This document shows positions 30,109 through 53,650 of a DNA stretch of 64,000 nt, piece after piece. This DNA is from a candidate division WS6 bacterium OLB20 (lineage in GTDB: Bacteria; Patescibacteriota; Dojkabacteria; B142; OLB20), in contig JYNZ01000003.1 in NCBI GenBank assembly GCA_001567355.1, positions 179,991 through 243,990 of the forward strand. Reading direction: 5' to 3'. The notes below the pieces were generated by a model. It ran no database searches. It was not told the origin of the DNA and saw only the letters and a program-made list of their open reading frames with translations. Each line of letters begins with the position of its first letter. The stretch's first letter is position 1. Made by a program: the position numbers and the translations under genes.

Positions 30109-31017
30109 CTACTGTAACACCTCGTCTTCGGGGAAGCTTACCGGTGTGCCGGTAATAGTTGGCTGGGTGAAGTCCAGATCTGACGAGTCCCCGTCAAAAA
30201 ACGAACCTCCATTAAGAAATCTGTTCTCAAGGAAATCAATCACAAACTGGTTAGGCACCACCTGCTCAGAAATTCGGGTATAGATACCGTCCAGATCAAC
30301 ACCCTCGTCAACAAAAAACTGGTACTTAACGAGATCCAGCTGTGCACCCCATGATGAACTGCCATCATCCTCTTCGATAAGATTAAGGCTCATCTCACGA
30401 ACAATAAAAAAGTCCTCACCCTGGTAGAGATCGTTCAGAAATGAACGGAAACCATCGAAAGTACCACTGAATCCGAATTCCGACGGTATCTCGATCAGAA
30501 TAAGTCCTTCCGTGACTTCTGCTTCATTCGGATTCTGGTCAATCAGATCCTCTCCCAGCAGCGACGAATCAAGATTCACAGCCCTGAACTCTGCAGTATC
30601 AATAACACGCTGTCGGAATGCAACCACCTCGGATGTACCGGTTGGCACTATCTCATTAATCTTGCTGATGATCTGCTGACGCGTCAGCTGCTCAGCACGC
30701 AGCGCAATCAGACGCTCGATCCGTTCATTGACAGCCTCATCCTCCTCACGCAGAACATTTATCTCATCAATTGTTGTAAAGATACGCTGGATGTTAGGAA
30801 TTACAGTAAACAGGATCAAACCCACAAAGACCACAAAACTGATAAGTGGCAGGGCATAAAACCTGATTGCCTTCCAGGTTTCGGACCAGTCAACAGATGT
30901 GGCATCCTCATCAAAGGAGATCTCAACAAACTCTGTCTGTGACTCACCGCTCAGCACACCCGGTGCTGATTGTGTCTGCTGTTCGTCTGTTGCGGGTGTT
31001 TGTGGTTCTGCTGCCAT
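30109..31017 (-). CDS. pilO: type IV pilus assembly protein PilO-like
   Basis: Single TM (ALPLISFVVFVGLILFTVI), then a coiled coil and a periplasmic domain. Start/stop coupled to pilN. Confidence 0.55.
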   Translation of the reverse strand: MAAEPQTPATDEQQTQSAPGVLSGESQTEFVEISFDEDATSVDWSETWKAIRFYALPLISFVVFVGLILFTVIPNIQRIFTTIDEINVLREEDEAVNERIERLIALRAEQLTRQQIISKINEIVPTGTSEVVAFRQRVIDTAEFRAVNLDSSLLGEDLIDQNPNEAEVTEGLILIEIPSEFGFSGTFDGFRSFLNDLYQGEDFFIVREMSLNLIEEDDGSSSWGAQLDLVKYQFFVDEGVDLDGIYTRISEQVVPNQFVIDFLENRFLNGGSFFDGDSSDLDFTQPTITGTPVSFPEDEVLQ

Positions 31018-31644
31018 TACTGCTGGATAAGATCATTAACTGCGACATCGTCATCAATCTCAACAAAGTTGAAGCTGATGCGCCCCTCAACACGCCTGTC
31101 TGCCTCAAGATCAGTCAGAGGTGCTGACCCTTCATCCGATGATACCTGGGCATTATTAAGCAACACATCCTGGATACCGTCGTATGAGGTAAACCGCCTT
31201 GTGATTTCTGCCATCTGCCGGTACGAAGCTGTAGTTACTGTTACATTGTACTTACCATCCCGGTCGCGGCCGTATCCTTTGATTACAACGCCATCCACAG
31301 GTACCGGAAACAAAGTCTCAGTAAGCTGAAAAACCCGCTCCGGAGCGATATCAAGACCAATAACGTTTGAAAGTGCATTGGTTTTGTGCACCAGCTCTCC
31401 GTTAAGGCGGAGGACATCACTGTATTCATTCTCAATAATAGCTTCCTTATTGGCAATCGAGACCTCCCAGTTAAGTTTGTGCCGGTCCATGACAAGGGTA
31501 TTAAACAGAATGAGAGCAAACCAGAGACAGACAGCAAACAGAGGCAGGACCGCTGTAAACACCGAACTGCGGTCTCGTTCTTCCTCCTTTTGTACCTCCT
31601 CATCAGATTTCTGCGGGAGAAGGTTAAACGTAAAAGGTCTTCAT
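31017..31644 (-). CDS. pilN: type IV pilus assembly protein PilN (5' frameshift)
   Basis: Track ORF 31017..31562 starts at GTG inside the TM helix. The same frame upstream reads RPFTFNLLPQKSDEE..., and NLLP is the PilN N-terminal signature. ATG at 31644 (MKTFYV*) is in another frame. Removing one T from CCTTTTACG gives MKTFTFNLLPQK.... Confidence 0.6.
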
Positions 31645-31645
31645 A

Positions 31646-32686
31646 TTACTGCGTTTTCAGAGCAAGACCCACACTGACGGTAAATCCGACAGTCGAGAGC
31701 TGGGCGACATCCGATTTGATCTTTCCTGCGATCTTAAGCCCTGCGACCGGATCGGTAACCTCAGCCTGGATTCCCAGGTTCGTAGACAGATACTGTGCAA
31801 GTCCCGGCAGCTTGGCACCATCCCCGACAACATAAATCTGCTTGGGTGTGCTTTCCTGCAGGTGGGCGCGGAAGTAGTTGAGTGTTTTGTTTATCTCGTT
31901 AATAATGATCTGCATTACCGGTGCCAGCGCTGCAGCTATCTTTCCGTCAGCCTGATCAGGCACAAGACCATAGGCACGTTTATACTGCTCAGCCTGACTG
32001 TACTGCAGACCGAATTCAGCTGAAATTGCCTTTGTCAGCTCATCACTCCCGGTCCCGAGACTTTGCGAGAAGATCGGAAACTTACCTTTGATTACGCTGA
32101 GATCAGTACCATTCGCTCCAAAATCAATAACCAGCACACTGTCAGAACCGGGGCGGTTAAATGTGATCGAACGCGCTGTCGCCATTGTTTCTGTCTCCAG
32201 TGCTATCAGCTCAAGTCCGGCTTTGCTGATAATTTCCATGTACTTATTAACTACGGTTTTCGGAGCTGCCACCAGCAGAGCCTGGATGAGATTGCGACCC
32301 TCAACGTTTTTTCTGGCGATAGGGATGTAATCAAGCTGCACATCTGACGGTGGGATCGGCAGATACTGCTTGGCTTCGTAGAAAAGTGACTGCTCAAGCT
32401 GGTCTTCCGGAAGATCAGGCAGCAGAATCAGACGGGTGAAGATAGAGGCCTCCGGCATTGCTGCGACCACGTACTTACTGCTGATGCGTGCCGCATCACG
32501 GATCTGTTTGATCTTGTCTGCAAGAATCTGTTTTGAGTTGTCATCCTCTGCCGCAACGGCACTGAACTCAGTGTCGATGCTTCCGATAGCCTCGAGTACA
32601 GCATCATCTGGTCCTTTAACAGATGTCCTCGCCACCTTTATGGTGTGGTTGCCAATATCCAGTCCAAAGAATTCGGGTAGGTTCAT
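31646..32686 (-). CDS. pilM: type IV pilus assembly protein PilM (actin-like ATPase fold)
   Basis: FGLDIGNHTIKVA...VLVIDFGANGTDLSVI...IYVVGDGAKLPGL are the PilM/FtsA phosphate-binding motifs. Confidence 0.75.
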   Translation of the reverse strand: MNLPEFFGLDIGNHTIKVARTSVKGPDDAVLEAIGSIDTEFSAVAAEDDNSKQILADKIKQIRDAARISSKYVVAAMPEASIFTRLILLPDLPEDQLEQSLFYEAKQYLPIPPSDVQLDYIPIARKNVEGRNLIQALLVAAPKTVVNKYMEIISKAGLELIALETETMATARSITFNRPGSDSVLVIDFGANGTDLSVIKGKFPIFSQSLGTGSDELTKAISAEFGLQYSQAEQYKRAYGLVPDQADGKIAAALAPVMQIIINEINKTLNYFRAHLQESTPKQIYVVGDGAKLPGLAQYLSTNLGIQAEVTDPVAGLKIAGKIKSDVAQLSTVGFTVSVGLALKTQ

Positions 32687-33909: not shown

Positions 33910-36496
33910 AACCGAATATTCTGCTTACAATTGTTTTCTCTGCCCTGATAAGCGCAGCTTTCGGATTATTTGCGGCTTCACCTGCCGATGCAGCCATCTC
34001 GTACGCCGGCGGCTGGTATACAAACCTGTGCGGTAACAGCACGGCTGATGCCTACAACTGCCCGGCTAATTGCAACCCTTATAACGGCAGTTGCAGCGGC
34101 AGCTACGTCTACAAATTCACCTGCAACGGACAGACGAATGAGTGTGTTTCAAACGGCACCGGCCCCAGTACGTTTCAGAGTTTTGACACAGGTATCTGCA
34201 ATCAGACACAGCAGATCGATGTCTTTAACCAGAACTGCGGACCGGTCAGCAACTGGCAATGTCCAGGCACAAGTGCTCTGACGGGATTCATGGTGTGGTA
34301 CAAACCATCGTGCTGTCAGAACACATGCCAGGGGGCCCGAGACCCCGAAAAACCGGGCAACCCGTATCCGCATAATGTCACACTCAACAGTTACACAGTC
34401 AACTTCAGCTGGAGTCACAATGATTTCGGCAGCTGCGGAGGCAACACCTGCAACAACACCTGCAACTCCCCGGTCCCCGGCAGTAACAGGTACTCACTGT
34501 ATGTTGATGGTGTCAGAGTATACAGAGGTAATAATAAATCATTCACATACACGGTCACCGGACAGAACCATACATGGTATGTCGTTGCTCACAGCAACTG
34601 CCGCCAGCGCCAGTCAAATACATGGAGCTTCACTGTCAACAGACCCCCGACTGCAGCTGCTCAGATAACCAGTAACGCACTCTGTAATGCCAATCCGGCA
34701 TCACAGGGATGGAGTGGCGTACACCCGCTTAGGGCAGGTTCAGGAAGTGCAGGGATCAACAATCCGCTACAGGTCCGGGCGACATACACTGATCCTGATG
34801 CTCCGCCAATCTGACTCTTCTGCGTGTCTGGTTTGCCGGCACATCACGACCACCATCAAGTGTGTCCAACACTCAGTTTGCAGCCAGCGGTACGGTCCAG
34901 ATGTACAGAACGCCGCAGGGTGTAGAGACATATTATATGTTTGTTGATGCAAACACTTACGAACAGATCACACCCGGCAATGGGAGGGGCATGTGCACTG
35001 TCGCAGGCAACAACCGTGTTCAGTTCTGTAATGTAACGGCACCTCCTTCAAACGCAGTGGCTTTTGCCTATCCTGCCAGCTTCCAGCGCAGCGGTAACAG
35101 TGTGATCGTTAACTGGCAGCTGGGTCTGCTCGGAGCTTCGACGTTTCCGCGTGATAATCAGGTACATGTCCACGCAAGCGACATACCCGGGGCAAACTCA
35201 GGCTGGATTGCAGATGATCTCTGGAAGGTGGATCTTAATCCTCCAGTAGTTGGGGCGACCCTGAATCTGCTCAGTGAGACTTCGTTTAACGTTACATACA
35301 GTGCAAACGACAGCTTAAGTGGTGTACTGGCAACAGCAAAATCATGCAGCTCAAACCTGCAGGGCAACGAATCAATCGTACTGATGCAGGATGCCCCCGC
35401 TGTAAATCCCAACAGCCAGAACTTCACCGGGAGCCAGACGCGGCAGACATGTTTTGACAACGCAACAGGGCAGACCCGTTACTCTGTAAGCAACACCCCT
35501 CGTGACGGATCGTTTTCTTTTGACTGGAATGCAACTGACTATGCCTGTAACCGTGCACCATCAGTAACAGCTCAGTTGCGACTTAAAAAACCCTGGCTCA
35601 TGACAGTCGATGGTGATCTGTTCTCCAGGCTGGGGATAAGTCAGACAACAATTGCAGATATCGAACGTATTCAGAGTCTTTTTCTGACAGACCAGCACAA
35701 CAGGGTACCGTACCTATCAGATTACAACTTCATGAGCGGGCAGAACTCGCTGCCTGCTAGAGACTCTGAACTCGACTTTGCAGTAAGATCCTACCTTGAT
35801 GCAAACGGAAAACCCAGGGACGAACTGGCGTACGAGAGCTGGTACGACCTTGCTGATGCCCAGCTCGAATCAAGACTGCAGGCGTCACAGCAGCTGACTG
35901 CTCAGGGACCGGTAACGTTTGCTGATGTTACGACGCACCAGATCGCGCAGACTCTTGGATCGGCATCTATCCAGCCCGATGGTTTTCCGGCTTCAGAACC
36001 TCAGGATCGCCTGAATGTAATCAGGGTGCAGGGCGACCTGCGTCTTAACAGGGTTACCTGCAACACAAAAACTGTCTTCCTTGTCAGCGGAAACCTTACG
36101 CTTGAGCCAGAGATAGGTCTGCAGGATAATCCCGCTGCTGATATTGTTAACGGCTGTCTGTTCCTGGTTAAAGAGACAACAACCATCCTTCCCGGTCAGT
36201 CTGCGGGAACACCCGGCGACACGACACCAGACTTTGACACTGTTGCAGGATTTATTGTCACCAGGTCCATTCAGATCCCTCCAGATCCTCAGTTCAACGC
36301 ATTGCGTGTAACAGGCTCCATTATCGCCAGCGAAAATAATACGTTCGACAGGGATGCAGGTGTTGTACTTAACCAGCTGTCACCGTCAGAGATCATCTAC
36401 TACGATGGGGGACGGTATATGCATCTGTTTGGCGAAGTACTTTCAATGCCGGTCAGTTTTAACATCGTTGAGAAACCGTTTCTTGATTCGTTCTGA
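33906..36496 (+). CDS. giant Cys-rich secreted protein, paralog A (~860 aa), with an apparent 1-nt deletion near 34803
   Basis: Track ORFs 33906..34814 and 34862..36496. The frame -1 translation bridging them (ANLTLLRVWFAGTSRPPSS) aligns with paralog B (ADLNRLEVWLGDNNSPAPG). Signal peptide, about 30 Cys, an FN3-like segment, and a conserved C-terminal module ending NIVEKPFLDSF. Confidence 0.6.
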
Positions 36497-38081: not shown

Positions 38082-38652
38082 TTCTCAGACACTGATAATC
38101 ACAGCAGCAGCACTCATCCTGTTTATCTCCGGTGGAGTGTTTGCAGTTATGGGGCTATCATCCTCAGCATCAGGAAACGATCCTGCTGTGACACTGCTGG
38201 ACAGCATCGGCAGTGAAAATCAGTATCGGGCCTGTTCAGGAAGCGCTGCCGAGGTATGCTTCAGCTGGCAGTATCTGACAGGCAGCTTCGCAGACAACAC
38301 GCTCACCGTGGGCGATGCAAGTCTCACGCTGTCCGGCAGGTACAACCGTGAGACAGATATTGAAGAGATTTCGCGCGATCTTAATGTGATCTATTACAGC
38401 AGGCCCGAGGGTGATCAGCTGACCGGATACCTGCAGACCGATAAGGATACGTTTGTGACTGGATCGACCGGATCCTGTGTTGAGGGTGCTTTCTTCTATT
38501 TTGACAGATTTCCGGCAGGGCTGGACCTGCTGAAGCTGCCTGTAGACGATGGTCACAGAGGCTTTCTGGAGCTGTATCCGTGTGACAGTAACCCGGCACA
38601 GGAACAGTTTTTCAGCTATACTAGACTTGAGCGCCAGCTGATTGATTTATGA
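38071..38652 (+). CDS. small membrane-anchored family protein 4
   Basis: ATG at 38071 overlaps the upstream stop (ATGAACCGTAA). TM IITAAALILFISGGVFAVMG. The track ORF starts earlier at 38008. Confidence 0.45.
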   Translation: MNRNSQTLIITAAALILFISGGVFAVMGLSSSASGNDPAVTLLDSIGSENQYRACSGSAAEVCFSWQYLTGSFADNTLTVGDASLTLSGRYNRETDIEEISRDLNVIYYSRPEGDQLTGYLQTDKDTFVTGSTGSCVEGAFFYFDRFPAGLDLLKLPVDDGHRGFLELYPCDSNPAQEQFFSYTRLERQLIDL

Positions 38653-41600
38653 AGACAAACCGCGCAAATCTGCTGTTCCTGATCTTCGGCATACTAGTTG
38701 CTGTCACGTTTGTAACGGCCAAATCAAATAATGCAGACGCACTCTCAATGGGTGTCGGCTGCTGGACACGCTGGAAGCAGCAGTACAGCATGGGATGGCA
38801 CTGCGACGGTTCCGCATCTGTTCGCAACAGGCCCTATGATGTATGGGTCTGGCACTGTCAGCAGGCAAATCTGAGCTGGTGTGATGCCAACAACGGCGGA
38901 GTGCTTATCACGAAACAGTCGTTCGGTGGGCCTGTGCCGGTTGAATTCACTTCTTCCGCAAGTGGTTACGGAAACTGCGGAAGCGTTCAGATGGACATCG
39001 GTCTTCCCGGTGCTTCTGACCACGGTGTAGCTGGAGGCGCAATTTACTCCAACGGCACAAGCTGCTCAAGTCCGCCACAACCGACAACACCTCCAAGTCA
39101 GTGCGGTAACTGGAACGATACACAGTTCTGGACCGGCTGCTGGGGCGAACCATACCCCGGCTGCGGGGGTCTTGGTGGATGGATCAGCGGTAACGACGTG
39201 ACCAGCCGCAACCCGAGCAGACCGTTTCCGCTTGATATCAACTGCTTTACCAACCTGGGATCTGCATGGACATCTGCGACTGTATCACTTGTTTACAATG
39301 GAAGCACAATCGGAAATTACAACACCTGGGCACCGCGAAACATCAATATCAGCTCACCGGGAACATACGAGGCGTTGTGCCGGGACCGTGTAGCACCAAA
39401 CTGTTACGACATTGACCGCTTCACCGTGCAGTGCGTCAATACCTGCGGCAGTGCCAGAGACCCCAATGCACCCACACTCAGCTCGCCGTCGAACGGTGCA
39501 ACACTGACAAACAGGAATGTGACGCTGACATGGTCTCACAGCGGATTTGGACGCTGCGGCGGCAACAGCTGCTCGGGCGGTTGTAACAGTACAAATCCGA
39601 CGAGCCTGAGTGTAACCCTTAACGGTCCTGGTGGAGGTACGGTCGTACTGCCCGGCGGCTCAACATCATATACATTTACAAATCTGACAGGCAAAAACTA
39701 TACCTGGTATGTTACGGCCCGCAACGGCTGCAATCTGACTGAACAGTCTGTTGTCAGATCGTTTGTCATCAACTCACCACCGACATTTAACGGATCAGTC
39801 ACAAGCAACCAGATATGTACAGCGGGTGGAGTAACCACAGGCGGATCAGCGCAATGGAGCGGCATCCACGCCAACTCAGTCATCGGAAACGGGACCAGCG
39901 GCATCAACAATCCTCTGACTGTGCGTGTGACCTACGATGATCCGGATGGAAGAGCTGATCTGAACCGTCTGGAGGTCTGGCTTGGCGATAATAACAGCCC
40001 GGCGCCGGGTGCAACAGCTGTCTCGACTTCGGCAAGCGCGTCCCTTGCATATGGCGGAGGATCAAATCATACACTCTATGCAGCAGGAGGAAGCAGTCGA
40101 TCAATAGACAGTAACAACTCCGGAAACCAGGCAGTACTCACATCAGGATCAAATACACAATCAATTGTTGCTGTTTCAGGTTCAACAACCGGCACAGCAT
40201 ATGCGCTGCCCAGGATTGTCTCAACCACAGCAACTTCAGTTGTTGTTGACTGGCAGCTTGGTCTGTTTAACTCTTCAGCGTTTGACGGTGACGTCCGGAT
40301 CTATGCACGCGCAGTTGACCAGTCCGGTGTAGCAGCAGGGTGGAGTATTATTGACACCTGGAGGGTCGACCTTCGCTATCCCAACCCCGTTGCCAACCTT
40401 ACTCTGCGTAACCAGACAGCATTTGATGTTACGTACTCTGCTAATGACGCCACCAGTCCGGTACTTTCATATTCCAAGACCTGTACCTCGAGTCTTGCAG
40501 CCAGCGAGTCGATCACACTCAACCAGGTCGCGCCTGGCGCATCACCAAACAGCCGGACGTTTACCGGCAACCAGAATCAGAATCCGTGTTTTGATAATCT
40601 TGCAGGCACGACCTACTACACTGTCAATAACACACCCCGGGATGGAACGCTGCGGTTTAACTGGACAGCCAAGGACTCCGCCTGTAACACCGCACCCTCG
40701 ACCTCAGCCGATCTTCGCCTGAAACCGCCATGGATGATGACTGTCGACGGTGATACATTTACCAGTCAGGGTATCAGGCAGACATCAATCAATGACATTA
40801 ACACCATTAACAACCCGAACCTGCCGGACCAGCACAACCGTGTACCGTATCTATCCGACTACAACTTCATGCTTGAGACGGGCTCGCTGCCTGCCAAGGA
40901 TACCGAGCGAGACCTTGCCGTTGACGATTACGATGACCTCAACGGAAAGCCAAGGGCCGAGTTCGGTTTTCCGGACTGGTTCAGTTTTGTCGATGCCCGG
41001 ATTCTCCGCAATCTGCCGGCAAATCAGATCGCAACAGTTAACGGTCCGCAGACATTCAGCGATGTAACATCACAGCAGGTGGCACAGGCACTCGGCATGA
41101 CGGGTGTAGAGATCAACGGATTTGCGGGCACAGGTGATGCGAAAGTAAATGTCATCAAAGTGATCGGCAATCTGACCTTAAACAGGGTCAGCTGCAACAC
41201 AAAGACTATCTTTCTGGTAACGGGCAACCTAACAATCAACCCCGAATCGCGAATATCAGACGACCCGCGCAACGATGTAATCAACGGGTGCATGTATGTT
41301 GTGGCAGGCAGGACAACGGTACTGCCCGGACAGAATGCCGATGTTCTTGGAGCTGCAACCGAGCGGGCGAGGGTGCTTGGCACCAGCGCTCAGGTTCTGG
41401 CTGCATCATTTGAGACTGCAGCCACAACTGCTGCCAGAAACAACAACGGGCAGTGTGTCGTCGGTATCCTGACAAACCATGCGGATGTCTATAATTCAAA
41501 TTATGATACCGGTTATGGCGTCGGCCGGGCAGAGATTCAGGCCCTGGTGCCGCAAGGCTATGTTGACCAGGTGAAACTGCTAACACAGATCTCACCGGCA

Positions 41601-42998
41601 ACCGAGTACAACAACATCGATCTGCTGTTTGTTAATGAGGCAAACCTGACCAACCTTCCTCAGGGTGGAGACCCGAATAATGCGCTTTCCTATCAGTGCG
41701 GCGTAGCCGGATATGTCCGTGCTGAAAACCCCAACCTCTATCCGGGCATGATCAATGCTGTATACGCTAACTGGTTGAATGGTATGAATATCATCATGTC
41801 AGCGGACAACGGAATCTCATCACAACGACTTGGCAGCACCAGCACATGTTTTGATTTTGCCAACTCCCTGACCGGTCCTCTGAATAATGCCATAATGAGC
41901 AATCACAGCAATGCGTTTAATTTCCTTTCTGTCGGGGATGCAAGCACAAACAGGCTGGTTGCCGGACAATACGACCCGACCGACAACGGAGGAGTGGACA
42001 CGAGAGTAATCTCAAGTGGTCCGGCTATGCTGAGCGGCGCATTTCAGGATTACAGAGGTGGCAGGGATACTCCAGGAAATATAGTCCATAACGGTGCAGG
42101 CGGAATAAACGCTCAGTGTCTCTCGACGGTGGTGCTTCAGGACAGGGTGGACTGGCCGACGATAAACCGCTTTAACGCATGTACGCTCGCATACGTTCCT
42201 CCCACCTCAACCCGCGGGTACTATGTCATCGATTCTAATGCAGCAACTGCAGTAAGATCCAAATGGGGCAGCATGCTGACCGAGATACCCGACTGCAATC
42301 CACCCACCCCGACACCCACTGCGGTGACAACCCCGGTAACGACTCCTCCAGCAAATGCGCCCACACTTAACAGCGTCAGCGCAACCTGCACCGGTACTGG
42401 TAACAACTACAACATCAGTGCTTCATGGACCGGAGGAGGGACGGGCACATTCTGGTTTGATATTGATGATCAGAATCCACACGCAGTCACCTGGTTTAAC
42501 CATGATAACGGTAACAACCGGAGCATGAACGTCAATCAGAACAACTTCCAGCAGTATACGGAGGCCGGTAATTCCAGAAACAGTGGAGTCCGTCTGGCTC
42601 TGACTCCAGGTGCAACCTACTACGCTAAGGTTTATGATGCACAGCGTGCTGTTGCTTCAAACTACAGGAGCTTTACGGCCCCGGTATGCTCAACACCTAC
42701 CCCGACACCGCCGCCGATTGATACCAACGCTGATTACGATACGCTGGATGGCTTTATCCTGACAAATTCGTTTGAAAGCCCGTTTGATTCACAGTATGAT
42801 GGACTAAGGATCGTCGGTGCAGTCATTGCAATGGAGAACAACAACTTCAACCGGGATTTCGGAGTTGTTCTCAACCAGCTGACACCATCAGAGATCATTT
42901 ATTACGACGGGGGACGCTATATGTACCTGTTTGGCAGAATACTGTCAATGCCCAACAGTTTTAATATCGTCGAGAAACCTTTTATTGATTCGTTCTAA
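38649..42998 (+). CDS. giant Cys-rich secreted protein, paralog B (1449 aa)
   Basis: Signal peptide. Cys-rich N-terminal region. An FN3-like block (PSNGATLTNRNVTLTWSH...YTWYVTARNGC). Pro/Thr linkers (PPTPTPT, TPTPTPPP). C-terminal module ending NIVEKPFIDSF. Roughly 450 aa are collinear with paralog A. Confidence 0.6.
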   Translation: MKTNRANLLFLIFGILVAVTFVTAKSNNADALSMGVGCWTRWKQQYSMGWHCDGSASVRNRPYDVWVWHCQQANLSWCDANNGGVLITKQSFGGPVPVEFTSSASGYGNCGSVQMDIGLPGASDHGVAGGAIYSNGTSCSSPPQPTTPPSQCGNWNDTQFWTGCWGEPYPGCGGLGGWISGNDVTSRNPSRPFPLDINCFTNLGSAWTSATVSLVYNGSTIGNYNTWAPRNINISSPGTYEALCRDRVAPNCYDIDRFTVQCVNTCGSARDPNAPTLSSPSNGATLTNRNVTLTWSHSGFGRCGGNSCSGGCNSTNPTSLSVTLNGPGGGTVVLPGGSTSYTFTNLTGKNYTWYVTARNGCNLTEQSVVRSFVINSPPTFNGSVTSNQICTAGGVTTGGSAQWSGIHANSVIGNGTSGINNPLTVRVTYDDPDGRADLNRLEVWLGDNNSPAPGATAVSTSASASLAYGGGSNHTLYAAGGSSRSIDSNNSGNQAVLTSGSNTQSIVAVSGSTTGTAYALPRIVSTTATSVVVDWQLGLFNSSAFDGDVRIYARAVDQSGVAAGWSIIDTWRVDLRYPNPVANLTLRNQTAFDVTYSANDATSPVLSYSKTCTSSLAASESITLNQVAPGASPNSRTFTGNQNQNPCFDNLAGTTYYTVNNTPRDGTLRFNWTAKDSACNTAPSTSADLRLKPPWMMTVDGDTFTSQGIRQTSINDINTINNPNLPDQHNRVPYLSDYNFMLETGSLPAKDTERDLAVDDYDDLNGKPRAEFGFPDWFSFVDARILRNLPANQIATVNGPQTFSDVTSQQVAQALGMTGVEINGFAGTGDAKVNVIKVIGNLTLNRVSCNTKTIFLVTGNLTINPESRISDDPRNDVINGCMYVVAGRTTVLPGQNADVLGAATERARVLGTSAQVLAASFETAATTAARNNNGQCVVGILTNHADVYNSNYDTGYGVGRAEIQALVPQGYVDQVKLLTQISPATEYNNIDLLFVNEANLTNLPQGGDPNNALSYQCGVAGYVRAENPNLYPGMINAVYANWLNGMNIIMSADNGISSQRLGSTSTCFDFANSLTGPLNNAIMSNHSNAFNFLSVGDASTNRLVAGQYDPTDNGGVDTRVISSGPAMLSGAFQDYRGGRDTPGNIVHNGAGGINAQCLSTVVLQDRVDWPTINRFNACTLAYVPPTSTRGYYVIDSNAATAVRSKWGSMLTEIPDCNPPTPTPTAVTTPVTTPPANAPTLNSVSATCTGTGNNYNISASWTGGGTGTFWFDIDDQNPHAVTWFNHDNGNNRSMNVNQNNFQQYTEAGNSRNSGVRLALTPGATYYAKVYDAQRAVASNYRSFTAPVCSTPTPTPPPIDTNADYDTLDGFILTNSFESPFDSQYDGLRIVGAVIAMENNNFNRDFGVVLNQLTPSEIIYYDGGRYMYLFGRILSMPNSFNIVEKPFIDSF

Positions 42999-46876: not shown

Positions 46877-47671
46877 TCAGAAAATAACAGGAATCACTAT
46901 CTGCCCGGCTATGAGCCAGAGCAAAGATCCGGCAGCAAGCACCGTGGCGTAAGGGACCTGGACACGAGGATCTCTTTTTCGTATGAGCAGCACAATGCCT
47001 GCTACTGATCCCGCCAGAGAGCCGAAAAGAACGGCCCAGAACATTCCTGCAAAACCAAGATACGCAGCAGTTGCAGCGGTCAGTACGACGTCCCTGACCG
47101 TAAGCCCGCTGCGGGGTATAAACCGGATGAGCCCGATCAGTAGTGCGAACAGTCCTGAACCGGCTATTGATGAGATCAGATCAGACGCAGTACGAAATCC
47201 ACTCAGGTATTCTGCAGAGACAATCAGCAGAGTCAGCAGAGAAAAAATAACCACTTCCTTTTTGGGCAGTGACATGTACTGATAATCATAGGATGCAAAA
47301 AATATCATCCCTGTCACAAACACTAATGCTCCGGCAAGGGGAAGTACAAACAGCTGCTGCGCGGGATTGTAGAACAGGACAAAAACAAACAGCACAATTA
47401 CAGCTGCTGCCAATTCAATAGCAGGATAGAGGAGAGGAAGACGTTCACCACTGGTTTTGCTTCTGCCGCCGGAAAGAATATAGGAAAACACCGGTATCAG
47501 ATCTGTGCCGGTAAGCACCTCTCCCGTACCGTCTGCAAAAGACCTGCCGCCCAGCGGCATGTTTCTGTAGACACGGTATGTCAGCATATTAACAAAACTG
47601 CCCAGCGCCGCGCCGAGGATCAGCCCCAGAACGTAAGTTATCCCGAACAGCAGCAGTGTTGCTCCTTCCAT
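46877..47671 (-). CDS. pilD: prepilin peptidase (A24 family) PilD
   Basis: Polytopic. FVNMLTYRVY..IPVFSYIL..G.....ERLPLLYPAIELAAA matches the A24 peptidase core. The Cys-box zinc motif appears absent. Confidence 0.6.
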   Translation of the reverse strand: MEGATLLLFGITYVLGLILGAALGSFVNMLTYRVYRNMPLGGRSFADGTGEVLTGTDLIPVFSYILSGGRSKTSGERLPLLYPAIELAAAVIVLFVFVLFYNPAQQLFVLPLAGALVFVTGMIFFASYDYQYMSLPKKEVVIFSLLTLLIVSAEYLSGFRTASDLISSIAGSGLFALLIGLIRFIPRSGLTVRDVVLTAATAAYLGFAGMFWAVLFGSLAGSVAGIVLLIRKRDPRVQVPYATVLAAGSLLWLIAGQIVIPVIF

Positions 47672-48144
47672 CAGATCGAACAGGGTGTTGTAGAAGTACC
47701 GGCCTGAAAATCGTCTCCTGATTCAAGTCTGACCGCGAGTGAATACCCGTCTGTCCGGGAAGCAAAGCAGTATGCGCTTGTATTCGTGGACGTCGTACCG
47801 ACGACCTGAACTCCGTTGGCACCTCCTGGTCCTGCATCATCAGTCTTTGCCGCACCATCAAGCGGAACCAGCACACATTTGTTTTGTGCTGTGCAACTGG
47901 TGACGGGATAATTTGCTGCAATCTCAACATTTTCACCGGCAAACCGGATTCTTGAAGGAAACCTGCCGTCAAGTGTCAGAAAATCGGCGATCCCGGCGTT
48001 AATATCCTGCAGCGCAGCCTTGCGGGCAGTGTCACGGGCGTTTCGCTGAGCAGCGGCAATACCGAACAGCGATAAACCGATCAGAAGACCGATTATCGCC
48101 ATGGCAACAAGCAGCTCGACAAGGGTAAATCCGTGTTTACGCAT
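47671..48144 (-). CDS. type IV major pilin (PilA-like), copy 2
   Basis: MRKHGFTLVELLVAMAIIGLLIGLSLFGIAAAQRNARDTARKAAL is a canonical class III signal and alpha1 helix. C-terminal Cys pair. Confidence 0.75.
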   Translation of the reverse strand: MRKHGFTLVELLVAMAIIGLLIGLSLFGIAAAQRNARDTARKAALQDINAGIADFLTLDGRFPSRIRFAGENVEIAANYPVTSCTAQNKCVLVPLDGAAKTDDAGPGGANGVQVVGTTSTNTSAYCFASRTDGYSLAVRLESGDDFQAGTSTTPCSI

Positions 48145-48230: not shown

Positions 48231-48743
48231 TTATGGAAGAGCTGGGGGATCACAGCTGGTGTTTGATGTACCACCATCTGCTTTGTCACCGTTCTCAAGG
48301 CGGACAGCCAGTGAGTAACCGTCGCTTCTCGTAGAGAAGCAGAAGGCGCTGGTATTGGTGGATGTCTGACCGACAACAAGGACACTGTTGTTCTGACCGC
48401 CAGTCTGATCCACGCCTGAACCAACTACAGCTGCACCATCAAGCGGAACAGCAACGCACTTGTTCTGTGCGGTACAGTTGGTTGCAGTTACGCTCGCCGG
48501 GTTACGGGCAATGAATACCGTGTCATTGGCAAACCTGAGACGGTCAGGGAATGCTCCCTCCAGGGTCAGGTAATCAGCGATACCTGCGTTGATGTCCTGC
48601 ATTGCTGCTCTGCGAGCAGTATCTCGAGCGTTACGCTGGGCAGCGGCAATACCGAACAGCGACAGACCGATCAGAAGACCGATAATCGCCATGGCGACAA
48701 GCAGCTCCACCAGTGTAAATGCTTTACGTTGTTGCATGAGCAC
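48231..48743 (-). CDS. type IV major pilin (PilA-like), copy 1
   Basis: QQRKAFTLVELLVAMAIIGLLIGLSLFGIAAAQRNARDTARRAAMQDINAGIADYL is near-identical to copy 2 over the first ~60 aa and diverges in the C-terminal globular part. Confidence 0.75.
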   Translation of the reverse strand: MLMQQRKAFTLVELLVAMAIIGLLIGLSLFGIAAAQRNARDTARRAAMQDINAGIADYLTLEGAFPDRLRFANDTVFIARNPASVTATNCTAQNKCVAVPLDGAAVVGSGVDQTGGQNNSVLVVGQTSTNTSAFCFSTRSDGYSLAVRLENGDKADGGTSNTSCDPPALP

Positions 48744-48762: not shown

Positions 48763-49986
48763 TTAGACGATGTTGGCTACGTTGTAGATGGGCAAATAGA
48801 CTGCTACTGCCAGCAATGCAACGAGACCACCAACTATTAAAAGAATAAGAGGTTCCATAAGCTTTGTCAAATTAGACGTTATCTCCTCGACCTGGTCTTC
48901 GTAAAATCTGGCAAGATCTCCCAGGATCTTTTCAAGTGCTCCTGTTTCTTCTCCGGTGGCAATCATTTTGATCACAATCAATGGCACTACCTTGTTTTTG
49001 GCAAGCGGTCCGGCTATCTGCTGTCCCTTTGCCACCTCCTGAGCGGCATAAAACAGTGCCAGTTTAAAATGAACATTACCCATCGATCTGCCGGTAGCCT
49101 TGAGTGCATCAATAATCGGAATACCGCTTTTGATAAGCATCTGCAGCAGTCGGGTCATCTGCAGTACCTGAGATTTTGCCTGCAGATCACCGAAGACCGG
49201 AAGCCTCAGCAGCAGCTTGTCGACGAATTTTCTTCCGGAATCAGTATTGTAGTAGGTGCGAAAGCCCACAATCGAGGCAACGACGACAAAAATGGTGACC
49301 CCCAGACCCAGCGGGTTTGTAAAGAAGTCGCTGATGGTGACCAGCGCCTGTGTGATGAGCGGCAGTTCAGCTTCTCCATTACTGAGGTCGTTATACAGAT
49401 CCTCAACAGCCGGAATCATAAATACGACAAGCACGATGATCACGATGATGATTGCCAGCAGGATCACAGCAGGGTAGATCATCGCACCTCGAACACGTCC
49501 CCGCAGTTGCGAACTTTTCTGCATGTCCTCTGCAATCTGTGTAATGATCTCTACAAGGTTGCCGGATTTTTCTCCGGCCTCGATCAGACTTAACTGCAGC
49601 TCGTCAAAGATCGCCTTGTGTTTTCCAAACGATGAAGCAAGGGGCAGTCCGCTCTGCACATCTTTGTAAACCTCGGTCAGCTGTTTTTTGAGACCCGAAA
49701 ATTTTGTCTGCTCGACAAGAATCTCGAGTGCCGAGGCAACCGGCAGACCTGCACCAAGCATCGTTGCCAGCTGACGGGTGAAAATAACTTTTTCGGTCAG
49801 AGGAACTCCGCCGATCTGGATGTCACCGAGATTGTCAAAACTGAAACCGATTTTCTGTTCGATCGAGATGACGATCAGCCCCTGCTCATGAAGCATGGAG
49901 ATAATCTCTTCGCGAGTTTCAGCCTGGCGCTCGCCGGCTACCTGTTCACCCGTCGGTTTTGTTGCTCGATAACTGAAGAGCGGCAT
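48763..49986 (-). CDS. pilC: type IV pilus platform protein PilC (GspF family)
   Basis: Duplicated GspF domains, three TM blocks, MPLFSYRATKPTGEQVAGE N-terminus. Confidence 0.75.
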   Translation of the reverse strand: MPLFSYRATKPTGEQVAGERQAETREEIISMLHEQGLIVISIEQKIGFSFDNLGDIQIGGVPLTEKVIFTRQLATMLGAGLPVASALEILVEQTKFSGLKKQLTEVYKDVQSGLPLASSFGKHKAIFDELQLSLIEAGEKSGNLVEIITQIAEDMQKSSQLRGRVRGAMIYPAVILLAIIIVIIVLVVFMIPAVEDLYNDLSNGEAELPLITQALVTISDFFTNPLGLGVTIFVVVASIVGFRTYYNTDSGRKFVDKLLLRLPVFGDLQAKSQVLQMTRLLQMLIKSGIPIIDALKATGRSMGNVHFKLALFYAAQEVAKGQQIAGPLAKNKVVPLIVIKMIATGEETGALEKILGDLARFYEDQVEEITSNLTKLMEPLILLIVGGLVALLAVAVYLPIYNVANIV

Positions 49987-51785
49987 CAGGCAGTATTACT
50001 TTTCATCAGCTGAAGTAATTCATCAGGCTTGGTTGTGTAGGTCTGTGCCTCCTCTATAGTCAGGTCGCCGGAACGCACCAGCTTGATCAGCGATTTTTCG
50101 AGGGGGATCATGCCAAGCTCGGCACTTGTCTGGATCATGTTATCAATCTGGTAGGTCTTTCCTTCCCGGATGGCGTTTTTGATGGCAGCATTGGCGATCA
50201 TTATCTCAAGAACAGCCTTGCGGCCACCACCCTGGATGGGCACAAGCCTCTGAGCGACTACTGCGGCAATCACGTTAGCGAGCTGTGCCCGGATCTGTGC
50301 TTGCTGCTGCTCGGGGAATACGTCTATCATACGGTCGATACTCTGGGCAGCCGAGTTTGTGTGCAGGGTCGAGAATACAAGATGGCCTGTTTCAGCAACG
50401 GTAATGGCTGATGCGATTGTCTCGAAGTCACGCATTTCTCCAACCAGTACTACATCCGGATCCTCACGCAGGGCAGCTCGGAGAGCGCGGGTGAAACTGG
50501 TCACGTCTGTGCCGACCTCACGCTGATCAACAAGGGATTTGGCCCGGGGAAATACGTACTCGATCGGATCTTCAATCGTGATAATGTGCTGTGCCTCAGT
50601 AACATTGATCTCCTGAATGATTGAGGCCAGCGTCGTGCTCTTACCGTGACCGGTCGGACCCGTGACAAGCACAAGCCCGTGCGGAAGTTTTGCGAACTCG
50701 TACATTACCTCTGGCAGTCCAAGCTCGGCAATCGTTCTGATACGTGAAGGGATAAGGCGGAAGGCGCCGGCAAGCTGTCCCTTTTTGTGGAACATATTGA
50801 CCCTGAATCGTGTTCCGCTCTGAATACTGTGCGAGAAGTCGATATCCAGATCGGTTTCCAGTGACTTTTTCTGTTCATCAGAGATGATGGAGTAGAGGAG
50901 TGTCTGCACGCGCTCAAACTGCAGTATCTGACTGCCGATCGGCATCAGTTTGCCGTCTACACGCAGCATCGGCGGGTAGCCTGTGGACATGTGAAGGTCA
51001 GAAGCGCCGCGTTCTTCAGCAAGTGCCAGAAAATCATCCATGCTGGCACGCTGTGCATAATAATCCTCACTTGCATCTTTTGGCTTTAGCCCCACAGTAT
51101 CCGACTGCTGAACCGATTTCTGCTTCTGCTTTGTTTCTGTCAGCTGATCAGCTTTCTGCAGAATCTGTGCCACCTGATCCTCTTTGCCCTGCGCACTGCC
51201 GGACAGCTCAACTTTTTGTGACTGAGTACCGTTATCAGGCAGCGGTGGCAGAGATGTACTGGCTGACTGTGCTGACGGCTGCGGCTGCAATTCCGGCTCG
51301 GGAACCATAGCTGCCGCCGGTGTTGTGACATCAGCAGGCGCTGCTTCATTTACGGCTGCTGCCGGTGCCTGCAGGGGTGCTGCCGGTGCAGAAGCCTGGG
51401 CTGTATTGTCAACTGTCATAACGGATTCTGCCGGTGTCTGCTGCGTCGCAATCTGCATACCGTCATCCGGAACCAAAGCGGCTTCGGGCATCTGCGGAAC
51501 AACAGGCTGTGCAGCCGGTTCAGGCTGTTGTGACTGCTGCGCAAGCTCTGGCTGCGGCATATCTGTGACAGGTTCGGGTGCATTTGCAGGCTGCTGCATC
51601 TGTTGTGGAGGTTGCTGTTCATCTGTCGCTCCCATGGCAAGCGGATCTGATATCGGCTCTGGTGCCTGCTGTGCAGGCGCAGACTGTGTCTGCTGCTGGT
51701 CAACAGCGGGCTGTGCAGTCACAGGCTGCTGAGCGACTGATGGATCAGATGTTTGTGCGGGACTGCTAAGGTCAATAAAGGGCAT
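49986..51785 (-). CDS. pilT: twitching-motility retraction ATPase PilT with a ~240-aa Pro/Gln/Ala-rich N-terminal extension
   Basis: The core from MDDFLALAEERGASDLHM onward shows LVLVTGPTGHGKSTT (Walker A), ITIEDPIEYV, VVLVGEMRD and His-box TLHTNSAA. The 240 residues before it are low-complexity and stop-free. Confidence 0.75.
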   Translation of the reverse strand: MPFIDLSSPAQTSDPSVAQQPVTAQPAVDQQQTQSAPAQQAPEPISDPLAMGATDEQQPPQQMQQPANAPEPVTDMPQPELAQQSQQPEPAAQPVVPQMPEAALVPDDGMQIATQQTPAESVMTVDNTAQASAPAAPLQAPAAAVNEAAPADVTTPAAAMVPEPELQPQPSAQSASTSLPPLPDNGTQSQKVELSGSAQGKEDQVAQILQKADQLTETKQKQKSVQQSDTVGLKPKDASEDYYAQRASMDDFLALAEERGASDLHMSTGYPPMLRVDGKLMPIGSQILQFERVQTLLYSIISDEQKKSLETDLDIDFSHSIQSGTRFRVNMFHKKGQLAGAFRLIPSRIRTIAELGLPEVMYEFAKLPHGLVLVTGPTGHGKSTTLASIIQEINVTEAQHIITIEDPIEYVFPRAKSLVDQREVGTDVTSFTRALRAALREDPDVVLVGEMRDFETIASAITVAETGHLVFSTLHTNSAAQSIDRMIDVFPEQQQAQIRAQLANVIAAVVAQRLVPIQGGGRKAVLEIMIANAAIKNAIREGKTYQIDNMIQTSAELGMIPLEKSLIKLVRSGDLTIEEAQTYTTKPDELLQLMKSNTA

Positions 51786-51820
51786 GGTTGTATCGGACTA
51801 AGCAAAAACTAATTCAACTG

Positions 51821-53650
51821 TTAACTGACAACACGCATAACTTCTTCAAGTGTCGTGATGCCTTCCAGCGATTTAAGGAAACCGTCCTGCATCATCGTGA
51901 TCATTCCCTCCTTGATAGCTTCTTTTTCAATCTCCTGTGCAGAACTTGTCGAAATGGTAAGGTTGCTGAGCGTCTCTGTCATCTTCATTACTTCAAAAAT
52001 ACCGATCCGGCCTTTATACCCCGAATCTCCGCATTGCGGACAGCCTTCACCCTTGTACAGATTTATCTTACCACCATTTTTTTGCAAGAGCGAGTCAAAG
52101 CTGAATCCTGCAATAGGATCAAGAACCTCGCGCAACTTTGCGAGCTGCTCCTCGTTGGCGATATATGATGTTGTACAGTGTTCGCAGATTTTCCGGACAA
52201 GACGCTGTCCGGCAGCAAGTTCAAGTGTTGAGGCCAGCAGAAACGATTCGATACCCATATCCTTAAGACGGGGGATAGCGCCAGCGGCACTGTTGGTGTG
52301 CAAAGTGGCAAGCACGAGATGACCGGTCAGTGAGGCCTGAACGGCAAGCTCTGCTGTTTCCATGTCACGGATTTCTCCGACGAGGATGACATCAGGATCC
52401 TGCCGCAGAAACGCACGCAGCCCCTTGGCAAAGGTAAGACCGACATCAGCGTTTACCTGCACCTGCGTGATGCCGTCAATCCGGATCTCAACCGGATCCT
52501 CAAGTGTCATAATGTTGATTTCGGGTTTATTAATGATCTTGAGAGCAGAGGCGAGCGTCTGGGTTTTACCGGAACCCGTCGGACCGGTTACCAGCAGAAT
52601 TCCCTGCGACTGTCTGATCGCCTCATCAAACATCTGGAAGTTCTTTCCACGCAGTCCTGTCTGGTCAAGTGTAAGCGTTCCGCCTCCTTTTGCCAGCAGA
52701 CGGATCACCACTTTTTCTCCATACACCGAGGGCATGATCGAGACACGCAGATCAATCAGATCGGCGTCCACTTTTATCTGAAAACGTCCGTCCTGCGGAA
52801 CGCGGTGTTCATCAATCTTAAGATTACTCAGAATCTTGATACGCGACACAATAGGTCCGGCAAGCTTGGGCGGTAGTGTGAGTTTTTCCTGCAAAACGCC
52901 ACTGATACGGTAGCGGACAACGACCCTGGTTTCGCGCGGTTCAATGTGTACGTCAGATGCCTTGTACTTGGCGGCATATTCCAGAATCATATTCACAATC
53001 CTGGAAACAGGGGCTGATGTGATACCACCCTGCACATCGGATCCTATCGTACCGGAGACTTCAACGACCTCACCCACATCTTCGAGCGCCTCAGTGACAG
53101 AGGTCCCGATCTGGGCACCATACTTGGTATCAATAATTCCCTTGATAGTTGTCGGGTCACCAAACGCGGGTTCGACCCGCTTGCCGATCATGGTGCTTAA
53201 AAACCGCACCTTCTGCAGATCAAGCGGATCCACCATTGCGACCTTGAGCCCGTTACTGGTTTTTTCGTACGCTACGGCCTGATTGCGCTGGGCGACATCC
53301 TGGGGGATCTCGTTGAGGACCTCGATATCAATCCTCATGGCACTCAGATCGACAAAGGGCATGTTATAGACCTCGGCCTTTGTCTGGTAGATATCTTTTT
53401 CAGAAACATATCCGCCACCGACGACTACCTGTTCTACAGGTTTTCCGGTATTAATCGCCTCAAACTTGACCTTTTTCAGGGTGTCGGCATCAATCTTACC
53501 CTTGTTGAAGAGAATGTCGGCGATGTTCTGTCCGACTGCCGCAGAGGCAGATCCCTGGACGGGAGGTTGCACAGGCTGACCTGGATTATTTACGGGAAGC
53601 CCCGCTTGCGGTAAACTGGAGTCAGTATTCCCGCTGTTTGCGCTTGCCAT
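51821..53650 (-). CDS. pilB: type IV pilus extension ATPase PilB (GspE family)
   Basis: N-terminal GspE_N region. ILLVTGPTGSGKTQTL (Walker A), ILVGEIRD, TLHTNSAAGA, and tetracysteine CEHC...CPQCGDSGY. Confidence 0.8.
   Translation of the reverse strand: MASANSGNTDSSLPQAGLPVNNPGQPVQPPVQGSASAAVGQNIADILFNKGKIDADTLKKVKFEAINTGKPVEQVVVGGGYVSEKDIYQTKAEVYNMPFVDLSAMRIDIEVLNEIPQDVAQRNQAVAYEKTSNGLKVAMVDPLDLQKVRFLSTMIGKRVEPAFGDPTTIKGIIDTKYGAQIGTSVTEALEDVGEVVEVSGTIGSDVQGGITSAPVSRIVNMILEYAAKYKASDVHIEPRETRVVVRYRISGVLQEKLTLPPKLAGPIVSRIKILSNLKIDEHRVPQDGRFQIKVDADLIDLRVSIMPSVYGEKVVIRLLAKGGGTLTLDQTGLRGKNFQMFDEAIRQSQGILLVTGPTGSGKTQTLASALKIINKPEINIMTLEDPVEIRIDGITQVQVNADVGLTFAKGLRAFLRQDPDVILVGEIRDMETAELAVQASLTGHLVLATLHTNSAAGAIPRLKDMGIESFLLASTLELAAGQRLVRKICEHCTTSYIANEEQLAKLREVLDPIAGFSFDSLLQKNGGKINLYKGEGCPQCGDSGYKGRIGIFEVMKMTETLSNLTISTSSAQEIEKEAIKEGMITMMQDGFLKSLEGITTLEEVMRVVS

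Follow-up and report, generated by a model that had tools for sequence, protein, structure and literature searches.

A predicted disordered N-terminal arm on the retraction ATPase PilT of candidate division WS6 bacterium OLB20 and related Patescibacteria

Disordered tails are already known in the ATPase superfamily to which the pilus retraction motor PilT belongs, where they occur on CpaF, PilU and MXAN_6705. Folded appendages occur as well: the N1 domain of GspE (and, by homology, PilB's N-terminal domain with PilM) anchors the ATPase to an actin-like ring protein. [quoted passage not shown] In the Patescibacteria, or Candidate Phyla Radiation (CPR), type IV pili have a central part in episymbiotic life and in DNA uptake (PMC6744442, PMC11623550), and the predicted structures of PilB and PilT from Saccharibacteria have been called surprisingly similar to those of non-Patescibacteria type IVa systems (PMC11623550). 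Here we analyse the pilT gene of candidate division WS6 bacterium OLB20, an ultrasmall member of the Dojkabacteria (WS6) within the Patescibacteria/CPR. The gene lies in a stretch of 64,000 nucleotides (contig JYNZ01000003.1, positions 179,991 to 243,990; hereafter the window, whose own numbering is used throughout). It encodes a PilT preceded by 248 extra residues that, in all likelihood, are translated and form an acidic, disordered arm tipped by a conserved peptide.

The pilT open reading frame (ORF) occupies 49986..51785 on the minus strand, which is the strand of all pil features given below, and comprises 599 codons plus stop, starting with the ATG at 51785. Its product is 100% identical to the NCBI entry 'Twitching mobility protein [candidate division WS6 bacterium OLB20]'. 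All of the criteria applied, of sequence as well as of structure, identify this 599-aa product as a true PilT that differs only in the arm. The TIGR01420 model (PilT/PilU) matches residues 249-589 over model positions 2-343 of 343, with a score of 453.5 bits against a curated cutoff of 319.1. The canonical ATPase core (residues 249-599; 49986..51041) contains a Walker A motif, GPTGHGKS, at residues 376-383, an Asp box, EDPIEY, at 405-410, a Walker B motif, DPDVVLVGEMRD, at 442-453 and a His box, ETGHLVFSTLHTN, at 465-477; the columns of all four are invariant in alignments of 15 and of 99 sequences. Residues 534-541, AIKNAIRE, share six of eight identities with AIRNLIRE, the type of C-terminal helix that lies at the PilT-PilC interface in a Vibrio cholerae model (PMC12632996). 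A Foldseek search against the PDB matched Geobacter metallireducens PilT4 (6ojx_A) with an E value of 6e-45, a template-modelling (TM) score of 0.94 and a root-mean-square deviation of 1.9 Å over 351 columns. AlphaFold2, run on the full-length monomer with the 99-sequence alignment, folds the core from residue 240 onward with a predicted local distance difference test (pLDDT) value above 90. The protein is predicted to act as a hexameric ATPase powering pilus retraction. It does not fall in the CpaF/TadA class: the best models are PilT models, a TadA-family model reaches 43 bits, and a single helix precedes the core. That PilT proteins are normally about 350 aa long, as a first-pass annotation of this DNA had stated, agrees with the solved PilT chains, every one of which aligns only to query residues numbered 239 or higher. 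Set against the compact architecture of ~340-375 aa, the 248 extra N-terminal residues are a point of difference and no ground for excluding the protein from the PilT family.

The boundaries of the extension could be drawn precisely. An in-frame TAG at 51798-51800, four codons 5' of the ATG at 51785, makes this ATG the earliest possible start of pilT. The stop codon of pilB ends at 51821, which leaves a spacer of 35 nt (51786..51820) lacking a Shine-Dalgarno motif. The first-pass annotation was right to place an ATG shortly after the pilB stop and an N-terminal extension behind it; its figures needed adjusting, from 36 to 35 nt for the spacing and from 240 to 248 codons (51042..51785) for the length. 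The core start that it put near 51066 is some eight codons off, the core Met (MDDFLALAEERGASDLHM) being residue 249, encoded by a lineage-specific internal ATG at 51039..51041. As to composition, the extension consists of 17% Gln, 17% Ala and 15% Pro, and its first 190 residues include 21 Asp/Glu, no Lys or Arg and a single aromatic residue. The sequence is of low complexity, as had been noted, and is not built of the QQPxxAQP repeats described at that time: Tandem Repeats Finder returned two marginal micro-arrays only (scores 30-32) and k-mer counts revealed no recurring peptide 5-mer in the extension. The suspicion that so long an open frame would hardly arise by chance proved justified. At the composition of the window, 248 codons would stay open with a probability of 9e-6, and at that of the region itself with one of 1.3e-4; of 20,000 mononucleotide shuffles, not one was free of stops. 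The remaining five frames carry 5-15 stops each, for which reason the antisense ORFs of 135-136 aa found inside the extension were dismissed as by-products of Gln/Ala/Pro codon bias.

Comparison with orthologues gives strong reason to believe that the extension is translated as part of PilT from the ATG at 51785. The closest relative is the complete genome CP129475.1, whose PilT core is identical at 303 of 349 positions (87%). Only a 349-aa PilT, starting at an internal Met, is annotated there, with 768 nt left after pilB; the frame is really open through this interval (L001 3257..4000) and yields a 597-aa ORF beginning MPFIDLSSP. The second complete Dojkabacteria genome, CP129478.1, is a similar case: PilT is annotated with 350 aa after a 1,451-nt gap following pilB, the gap is open in frame (L025 1639..3000) and the ORF is actually 804 aa long. 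Synonymous sites in pilT are saturated between OLB20 and CP129475.1, the proportion of synonymous differences (pS) being 0.75-1.0. At the extreme N-terminus, MPFIDLSSP (residues 1-9; 51759..51785) is identical at nine of nine residues, with a pS of ~1.0 and a proportion of nonsynonymous differences (pN) of 0.045. In the middle of the arm 44 of 158 aligned residues are identical and 48 columns are gaps. This pattern of substitution indicates that the N-terminal peptide is under purifying selection.

The same start recurs well beyond the closest relative. In nine loci from different lineages, which include metagenome-assembled genomes labelled Doudnabacteria and Saccharibacteria, the first ATG past the upstream stop encodes MP[FLI][IV][DN][LI]; changes are confined to wobble positions (ATG CCN TTY ATH GAY YTN), and where the locus includes pilB this start sits 17-89 nt after it. 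The frame stays open over extensions of 93-390 aa (454 aa in L025) that are otherwise unalignable. Met249, on the other hand, is found just in OLB20 and its closest relative. Of 16 orthologous loci, 14 have ATT, ATA, ATC, TTA or CTG at the aligned codon, none of them a start, and in one locus ATG, GTG and TTG are all missing from -40 to +25 codons around the Met249 position. The assignment of the extension to PilT, rather than to a region upstream of an internal start, is thus upheld by five independent lines of comparison: purifying selection on the terminal peptide, the shared N-terminal start, the frame that is open throughout, the non-start codons at position 249 and the disorder that AlphaFold2 predicts for residues 1-190.

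A start at Met249 (51041), with the 744 nt upstream forming an untranslated spacer that happens to be open by chance or through its composition, appears barely credible in this light. It would accord with the 349-aa and 350-aa PilTs that NCBI annotates in CP129475.1 and CP129478.1, with the ~350 aa of canonical PilTs and with the lack of a Shine-Dalgarno motif at either candidate start. Yet the chance of such an open frame is 1e-4 or lower, the N-terminal peptide is kept at the amino-acid level despite synonymous turnover, non-start codons replace Met249 in those 14 loci, and insertions and deletions in the extension preserve the frame from locus to locus over the whole range of lengths. Moreover, one would hardly expect genomes of ~1 Mb to hold 0.77-1.45 kb of non-coding sequence at this place, and promoter and terminator signals inside the extension were counted at the level of shuffled sequence. 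Nor does the Shine-Dalgarno argument help this reading. Tetramers of that type precede just 4 of the 38 genes in the window and the organism apparently initiates translation largely without such pairing; the motifs being scarce genome-wide, their absence at either pilT start is uninformative. An RNA element or regulatory spacer was also considered for the region and rejected, the only Rfam hit being a 22-bit isrG match on the antisense strand, where the gathering score is 100. Less improbable, and still doubtful, is the production of two isoforms, one of 599 aa from the ATG at 51785 and one of 351 aa from Met249, which would result in hexamers mixing armed and unarmed subunits. The occurrence of Met249 in exactly OLB20 and its closest relative would suit such an arrangement, and initiation without Shine-Dalgarno pairing leaves internal AUGs not obviously excluded. 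Against this, Met249 is unconserved elsewhere, no internal promoter or other signal accompanies it, and in-frame ATGs are scattered throughout the extension (residues 51, 63, 76, 99, 110, 123 and 160), so that an internal Met is nothing special.

In the AlphaFold2 model, residues 1-190 had pLDDT values of 41-53 and no secondary structure, in line with the disorder proposed by the first-pass annotation. One helix, predicted to be amphipathic, was formed by residues 202-218 (51132..51182; pLDDT 75-82), and residues 220-234 were again of low pLDDT and devoid of secondary structure. No Pfam or NCBIfam domain matched before residue 201 and, in PDB alignments and Foldseek, no solved structure matched before residue 239. 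A folded N-terminal anchoring domain of the GspE/PilB N1 type (MshEN/GSPII) is lacking; disorder is modelled in its place. Residues 1 to ~238 are very probably, on the strength of these predictions, an intrinsically disordered and strongly acidic Pro/Gln/Ala-rich arm. Behind the tip, its parts are an acidic Pro/Gln/Ala-rich linker (residues 10-190; 51216..51758), a pre-core block conserved in the subclade (residues 191-222, VELSGSAQGKEDQVAQILQKADQL...; 51120..51215) and a Lys/Gln-rich linker with an LKPxxAxExYYAQRAS segment that enters the core (residues 223-248; 51042..51119). Three islands are kept: the MPFIDLSSP tip, the helix-forming block at ~195-220 and the core-entry segment. In the closest subclade they read MPF[IV]DLSSP, then [IV]xL[TSQ]G[SGT]Ax(5)V, which contains the helix and in most members has GKE ahead of the Val and KAD behind it, and finally LKPxxAxExF...A. 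The alignments strongly suggest that the far tip is the best-conserved island of the arm.

To survey the distribution of the arm, the 98 top-ranking homologues of less than 700 aa were compared. Of these, 79 carry extensions that range from 64 to 345 aa, with a median of 141 and with all but one reaching at least 83 aa, and 16 further homologues had 17-56 extra N-terminal residues. When the cores were placed in a neighbour-joining tree with midpoint rooting, five proteins without an extension clustered together at one of its ends. P0073, the sole one of the five to be checked, has the same synteny with a pilB-pilT gap of 3 nt, so its clade is genuinely short. Three other 'short' proteins, P0004, P0115 and P0025, are nested inside extended clades and are all open upstream in frame; two of them are truncated annotations of complete genomes and in P0025 the frame continues open as far as the contig edge. 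Relatives from the Firmicutes lack an extension. Taken as a whole, the distribution suggests a single origin of the arm, in a large Patescibacteria PilT clade, and its retention ever since. Outside the size limit of the survey, homologues P0008-P0031 and others (Myxococcota, 714-766 aa) carry 363-396 extra N-terminal residues of ordinary Leu/Ala/Arg-rich composition; these proteins of ~720-760 aa look like tandem double-PilTs and not like disordered arms, because the extra residues open with a PilT-like '...ASDLF' start of their own.

Outside the islands the arm changes rapidly. The summed Gly, Ala, Arg and Pro content of the extensions ranges from 11 to 42% and tracks the GC content of the locus (rho 0.74), that of the core being 20-25%. 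Orthologous arms score 17-36 bits against each other, and they are net acidic across the family, at a mean of -6.7 charges per 100 aa. The linker very probably evolves like a spacer, its sequence drifting freely and its composition following genomic GC. A search of a 5.8-billion-protein database with the extension alone returned nothing, not even the self match, which scores 468 bits locally. Motifs at and near the tip could be followed further. MP[FLI][IV][DN][LI] occurs in 16 of the 79 extended database proteins, and all three metagenome matches to the DNA pattern of the tip are 575-aa PilTs. The most widespread island in the arms of these homologues is GV[KR]E[MFY]xGPP[LV], present in 34 of the 79 (among them P0005, P0007, P0012, P0016, P0018, P0026 and P0032-P0056), often after EHxLM..xP and almost N-terminal in one clade. 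The N-terminus 'NTxLPQ' of clade 2 was considered as a PilN-like motif and discarded, as it appears to align with the internal LMRDVP...GVKEMxGPPL block of clade 1.

What the arm does is probably tethering or regulatory. We favour, with somewhat better than even confidence, a 599-aa PilT with a translated disordered arm, six of which would serve each hexamer as flexible tethers. Through them the terminal peptide would be offered to a partner that is part of the type IV pilus machine or close by, and the retraction motor might in this way either be kept near the machine or be gated in reaching the PilC platform. In the integrative model of V. cholerae, the C-terminal domain of PilT binds PilC through AIRNLIRE and PilU is stacked under PilT (PMC12632996); AlphaFold models of the Myxococcus xanthus proteins, which are said to agree with V. 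cholerae, have PilT's N-terminal region toward PilU (PMC13584747). If PilT were placed here as in the V. cholerae model, its N-terminal face would look toward the cytoplasm, and only over a long linker could an N-terminal anchor reach back to the PilM ring or the machine base. Such an orientation, if the same here, would explain arms of ~100-450 residues.

Any naming of the partner is speculative, and our candidate is PilM (31646..32686), an actin-like protein that matches PF11104 at 3.9e-46 and also matches the FtsA Pfam family. PilM binds the N-terminal peptide of PilN, which begins MK[ST]F[TS]FNLLP in all Dojkabacteria PilN orthologues. This binding makes PilM the most obvious candidate for a docking partner, as does the fact that its homologue GspL binds GspE N1 (PDB 4PHT). 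A docking chimera was modelled with AlphaFold2 as a single chain that joined PilT residues 1-60, PilM, a native linker of 50 aa and the FNLLP peptide of PilN, using a 125-sequence PilM alignment. PilM was modelled with pLDDT values of 92-98; the PilT tip (47) was undocked, and so was the FNLLP positive control (below 50). The first-pass annotation had raised the idea of a tether to the envelope or to partner proteins. A tether is plausible, but attachment to the envelope itself seems unlikely for an arm so strongly acidic and devoid of any hydrophobic or amphipathic membrane-binding segment.

Several observations weigh against the tether as we picture it. The argument for translation is entirely comparative. 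The PilT tip, MPF[IV][DN]L[ST], shares just a hydrophobic-[ND]-L core with the PilN motif, the LP being missing. GV[KR]E[MFY]xGPP[LV] is degenerate in the PilT of OLB20, as in that of its closest relative, and the terminal motifs of other clades differ (MQN..EYxGPPLP, F.YPDF and [IV]SPL), so that no single universal partner-binding peptide is evident. Docking of the tip onto its own core is absent from the AlphaFold2 model of the full-length monomer. Finally, where cells are very small, tethering does little to speed the motor's search for the machine.

The main rival to the tether is a translated arm with a role in cis, whether regulatory, auto-inhibitory or that of an entropic bristle, influencing hexamer assembly, the ATPase cycle or the competition with PilB for PilC. 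We rate it as possible, if rather on the unlikely side. It draws on the proposal that the IDR of CpaF gates nucleotide binding, truncation tending to raise ATPase activity, and on the regulatory or auto-inhibitory part suggested for the C-terminal IDR of PilU. The arm itself is a polyanion, with a net charge of -21 over 190 aa that could shield or mimic a binding surface, and the helix at 202-218, beside the core, is modelled with fairly high confidence. What is hard to accommodate in a purely steric cis role is that the best-conserved element should be the far tip, ~190 disordered residues away from the core; and no intramolecular docking of the tip was predicted, in a model that is of the monomer only. 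A neutral low-complexity expansion, translated and merely tolerated at a permissive terminus, is very improbable. The extreme turnover of sequence, the composition that follows GC, lengths that vary from 29 to 454 residues and the existence of a genuinely short PilT clade, with its pilB-pilT gap of 3 nt, are all features that neutrality would lead one to expect; retention of the arm across a large and deep clade of ~1-Mb genomes under strong reduction, motif islands under purifying selection and a net-acidic character that is consistent across the family are not. The tether can also be put in a stronger form, in which the tip is a dedicated docking signal for the PilM/PilN/PilC base, PilT is permanently leashed by six acidic tethers of ~10 nm, extending back from the N-terminal side of the ring, which faces the cytoplasm, and the switch between extension and retraction is made by swinging a pre-tethered motor, and not by recruitment from the cytoplasm. 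We think this unlikely; if true, it would explain in a new way how PilB and PilT are exchanged.

For no pilus system, to our knowledge, is it settled how the retraction motor is recruited and how it trades places with PilB. An arm that is clade-wide, selectively maintained and provided with a terminal peptide would offer a testable handle on motor recruitment or regulation. There is also a problem of annotation, in that surveys relying on the short PilT of the two complete NCBI genomes miss the arm. Furthermore, because residues 1-190 contain no Lys or Arg, most of the arm is invisible to standard tryptic proteomics.

The surroundings of pilT are those of a type IV pilus cluster. The order on the minus strand is pilB-pilT-pilC, followed by two pilin genes, the prepilin peptidase gene pilD and minor pilins, and the pilB-pilT-pilC synteny recurs in relatives. 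The pilB gene (51821..53650), directly upstream of pilT, encodes an extension ATPase with MshEN and T2SSE domains; the ATG of pilC (48763..49986), which encodes the platform protein, overlaps the pilT stop codon by 1 nt. PilB has a low-complexity segment of its own, of ~40 residues (1-42), rich in Pro, Gln, Asn and Gly and preceding MshEN; the PilB of the closest relative has a comparable but divergent N-terminal segment. The two pilin genes are tandem paralogues (47671..48144, 157 aa; 48231..48743, 170 aa) whose products are near-identical in their N-terminal halves (FTLVELLVAMAIIGLLIGLSLFGIAAAQRNARDTAR.AA.QDINAGIAD) and divergent in their C-terminal halves.

In the pilM region, pilN (31017..31644), which follows pilM, is frame-broken, with a TTTT run in CCTTTTAC at ~31627..31630. 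The annotated product has 181 aa from a GTG at 31562 and lacks the PilM-binding N-terminus. The upstream frame reads ...FTFNLLPQKSDEEVQKEEERDRSS, with an ATG AAG ACC TTT T.. start lying one base out of frame; judging from the reading frames, one extra T, an assembly error or a real frameshift, explains the break. In the PilO-like protein (30109..31017), residues 9-19, ATDEQQTQSAP, can be read as ATDEQQ plus QQTQSAP, and both of these also occur in the PilT arm (residues 31-37 and 53-58) with synonymous codon differences. The 7-mer shared between the arm and the PilO-like cytoplasmic tail has a p of ~6e-4 by shuffling; QQTQSAP was rejected as a common motif of the two proteins, being absent from the same pair in the closest complete genome. 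Three large proteins are encoded on the plus strand, at 17661..21839 (1392 aa), 34862..36496 (544 aa) and 38649..42998 (1449 aa). Those of 1449 and 1392 aa have hydrophobic N-termini and no Pfam match. Those of 544 and 1449 aa are located between the pilM and minor-pilin clusters and share long similar stretches, with a near-identical C-terminal ...SEIIYYDGGRYM.LFG..LSMP.SFNIVEKPF[LI]DSF. These two proteins could be pilus-associated or surface adhesins.

Compared with canonical PilTs (Pseudomonas aeruginosa 3JVV, Aquifex aeolicus 2EWV and G. metallireducens PilT4 6OJX), residues 249-599 of the OLB20 protein are 45-49% identical, with TM scores of 0.88-0.94. All catalytic boxes are shared, as are the AIRNLIRE-like helix (AIKNAIRE) and the pilB-pilT-pilC gene order, and OLB20 adds ~240 disordered N-terminal residues with a conserved terminal peptide. 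Class II CpaF of the Caulobacter Tad system is also a PilT/VirB11-like hexameric motor with a lineage-restricted N-terminal IDR (PMC12019362). It differs in belonging to another subfamily, in being bifunctional and in having a three-helix bundle and an IDR of ~79 aa, whereas the OLB20 arm, which is 3-5 times longer, sits on a motor dedicated to retraction and has a conserved motif at its extreme N-terminus. The PilU of M. xanthus has a lineage-specific tail that is predicted to be disordered, but this tail is C-terminal and of ~112 aa; in the same organism MXAN_6705, an accessory PilT paralogue, has a longer, predicted-disordered N-terminus (PMC13584747). The OLB20 tail, in contrast to both, belongs to the gene of the pilB-pilT-pilC cluster, the sole PilT-family gene in the window, and is common to a Patescibacteria clade. 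GspE, whose N1E domain and linker bind the cytoplasmic domain of GspL (PDB 4PHT), likewise joins an N-terminal appendage to the motor core by a flexible linker. The appendages of GspE and PilB are folded domains on extension or secretion ATPases, whereas that of OLB20 is a peptide on the disordered arm of a retraction ATPase. FtsZ has a disordered, variable C-terminal linker ending in a short conserved peptide that docks onto FtsA/ZipA, as an actin-like partner at the membrane. The design principle is alike, in an unrelated family and with the motif at the opposite terminus, and FtsZ serves as an analogy only. No description of a long N-terminal PilT extension in CPR/Patescibacteria was found in the literature searched; what appears to be new here, therefore, is that across a Patescibacteria clade the PilT encoded in the pil cluster bears a long N-terminal arm whose terminal motifs are conserved.

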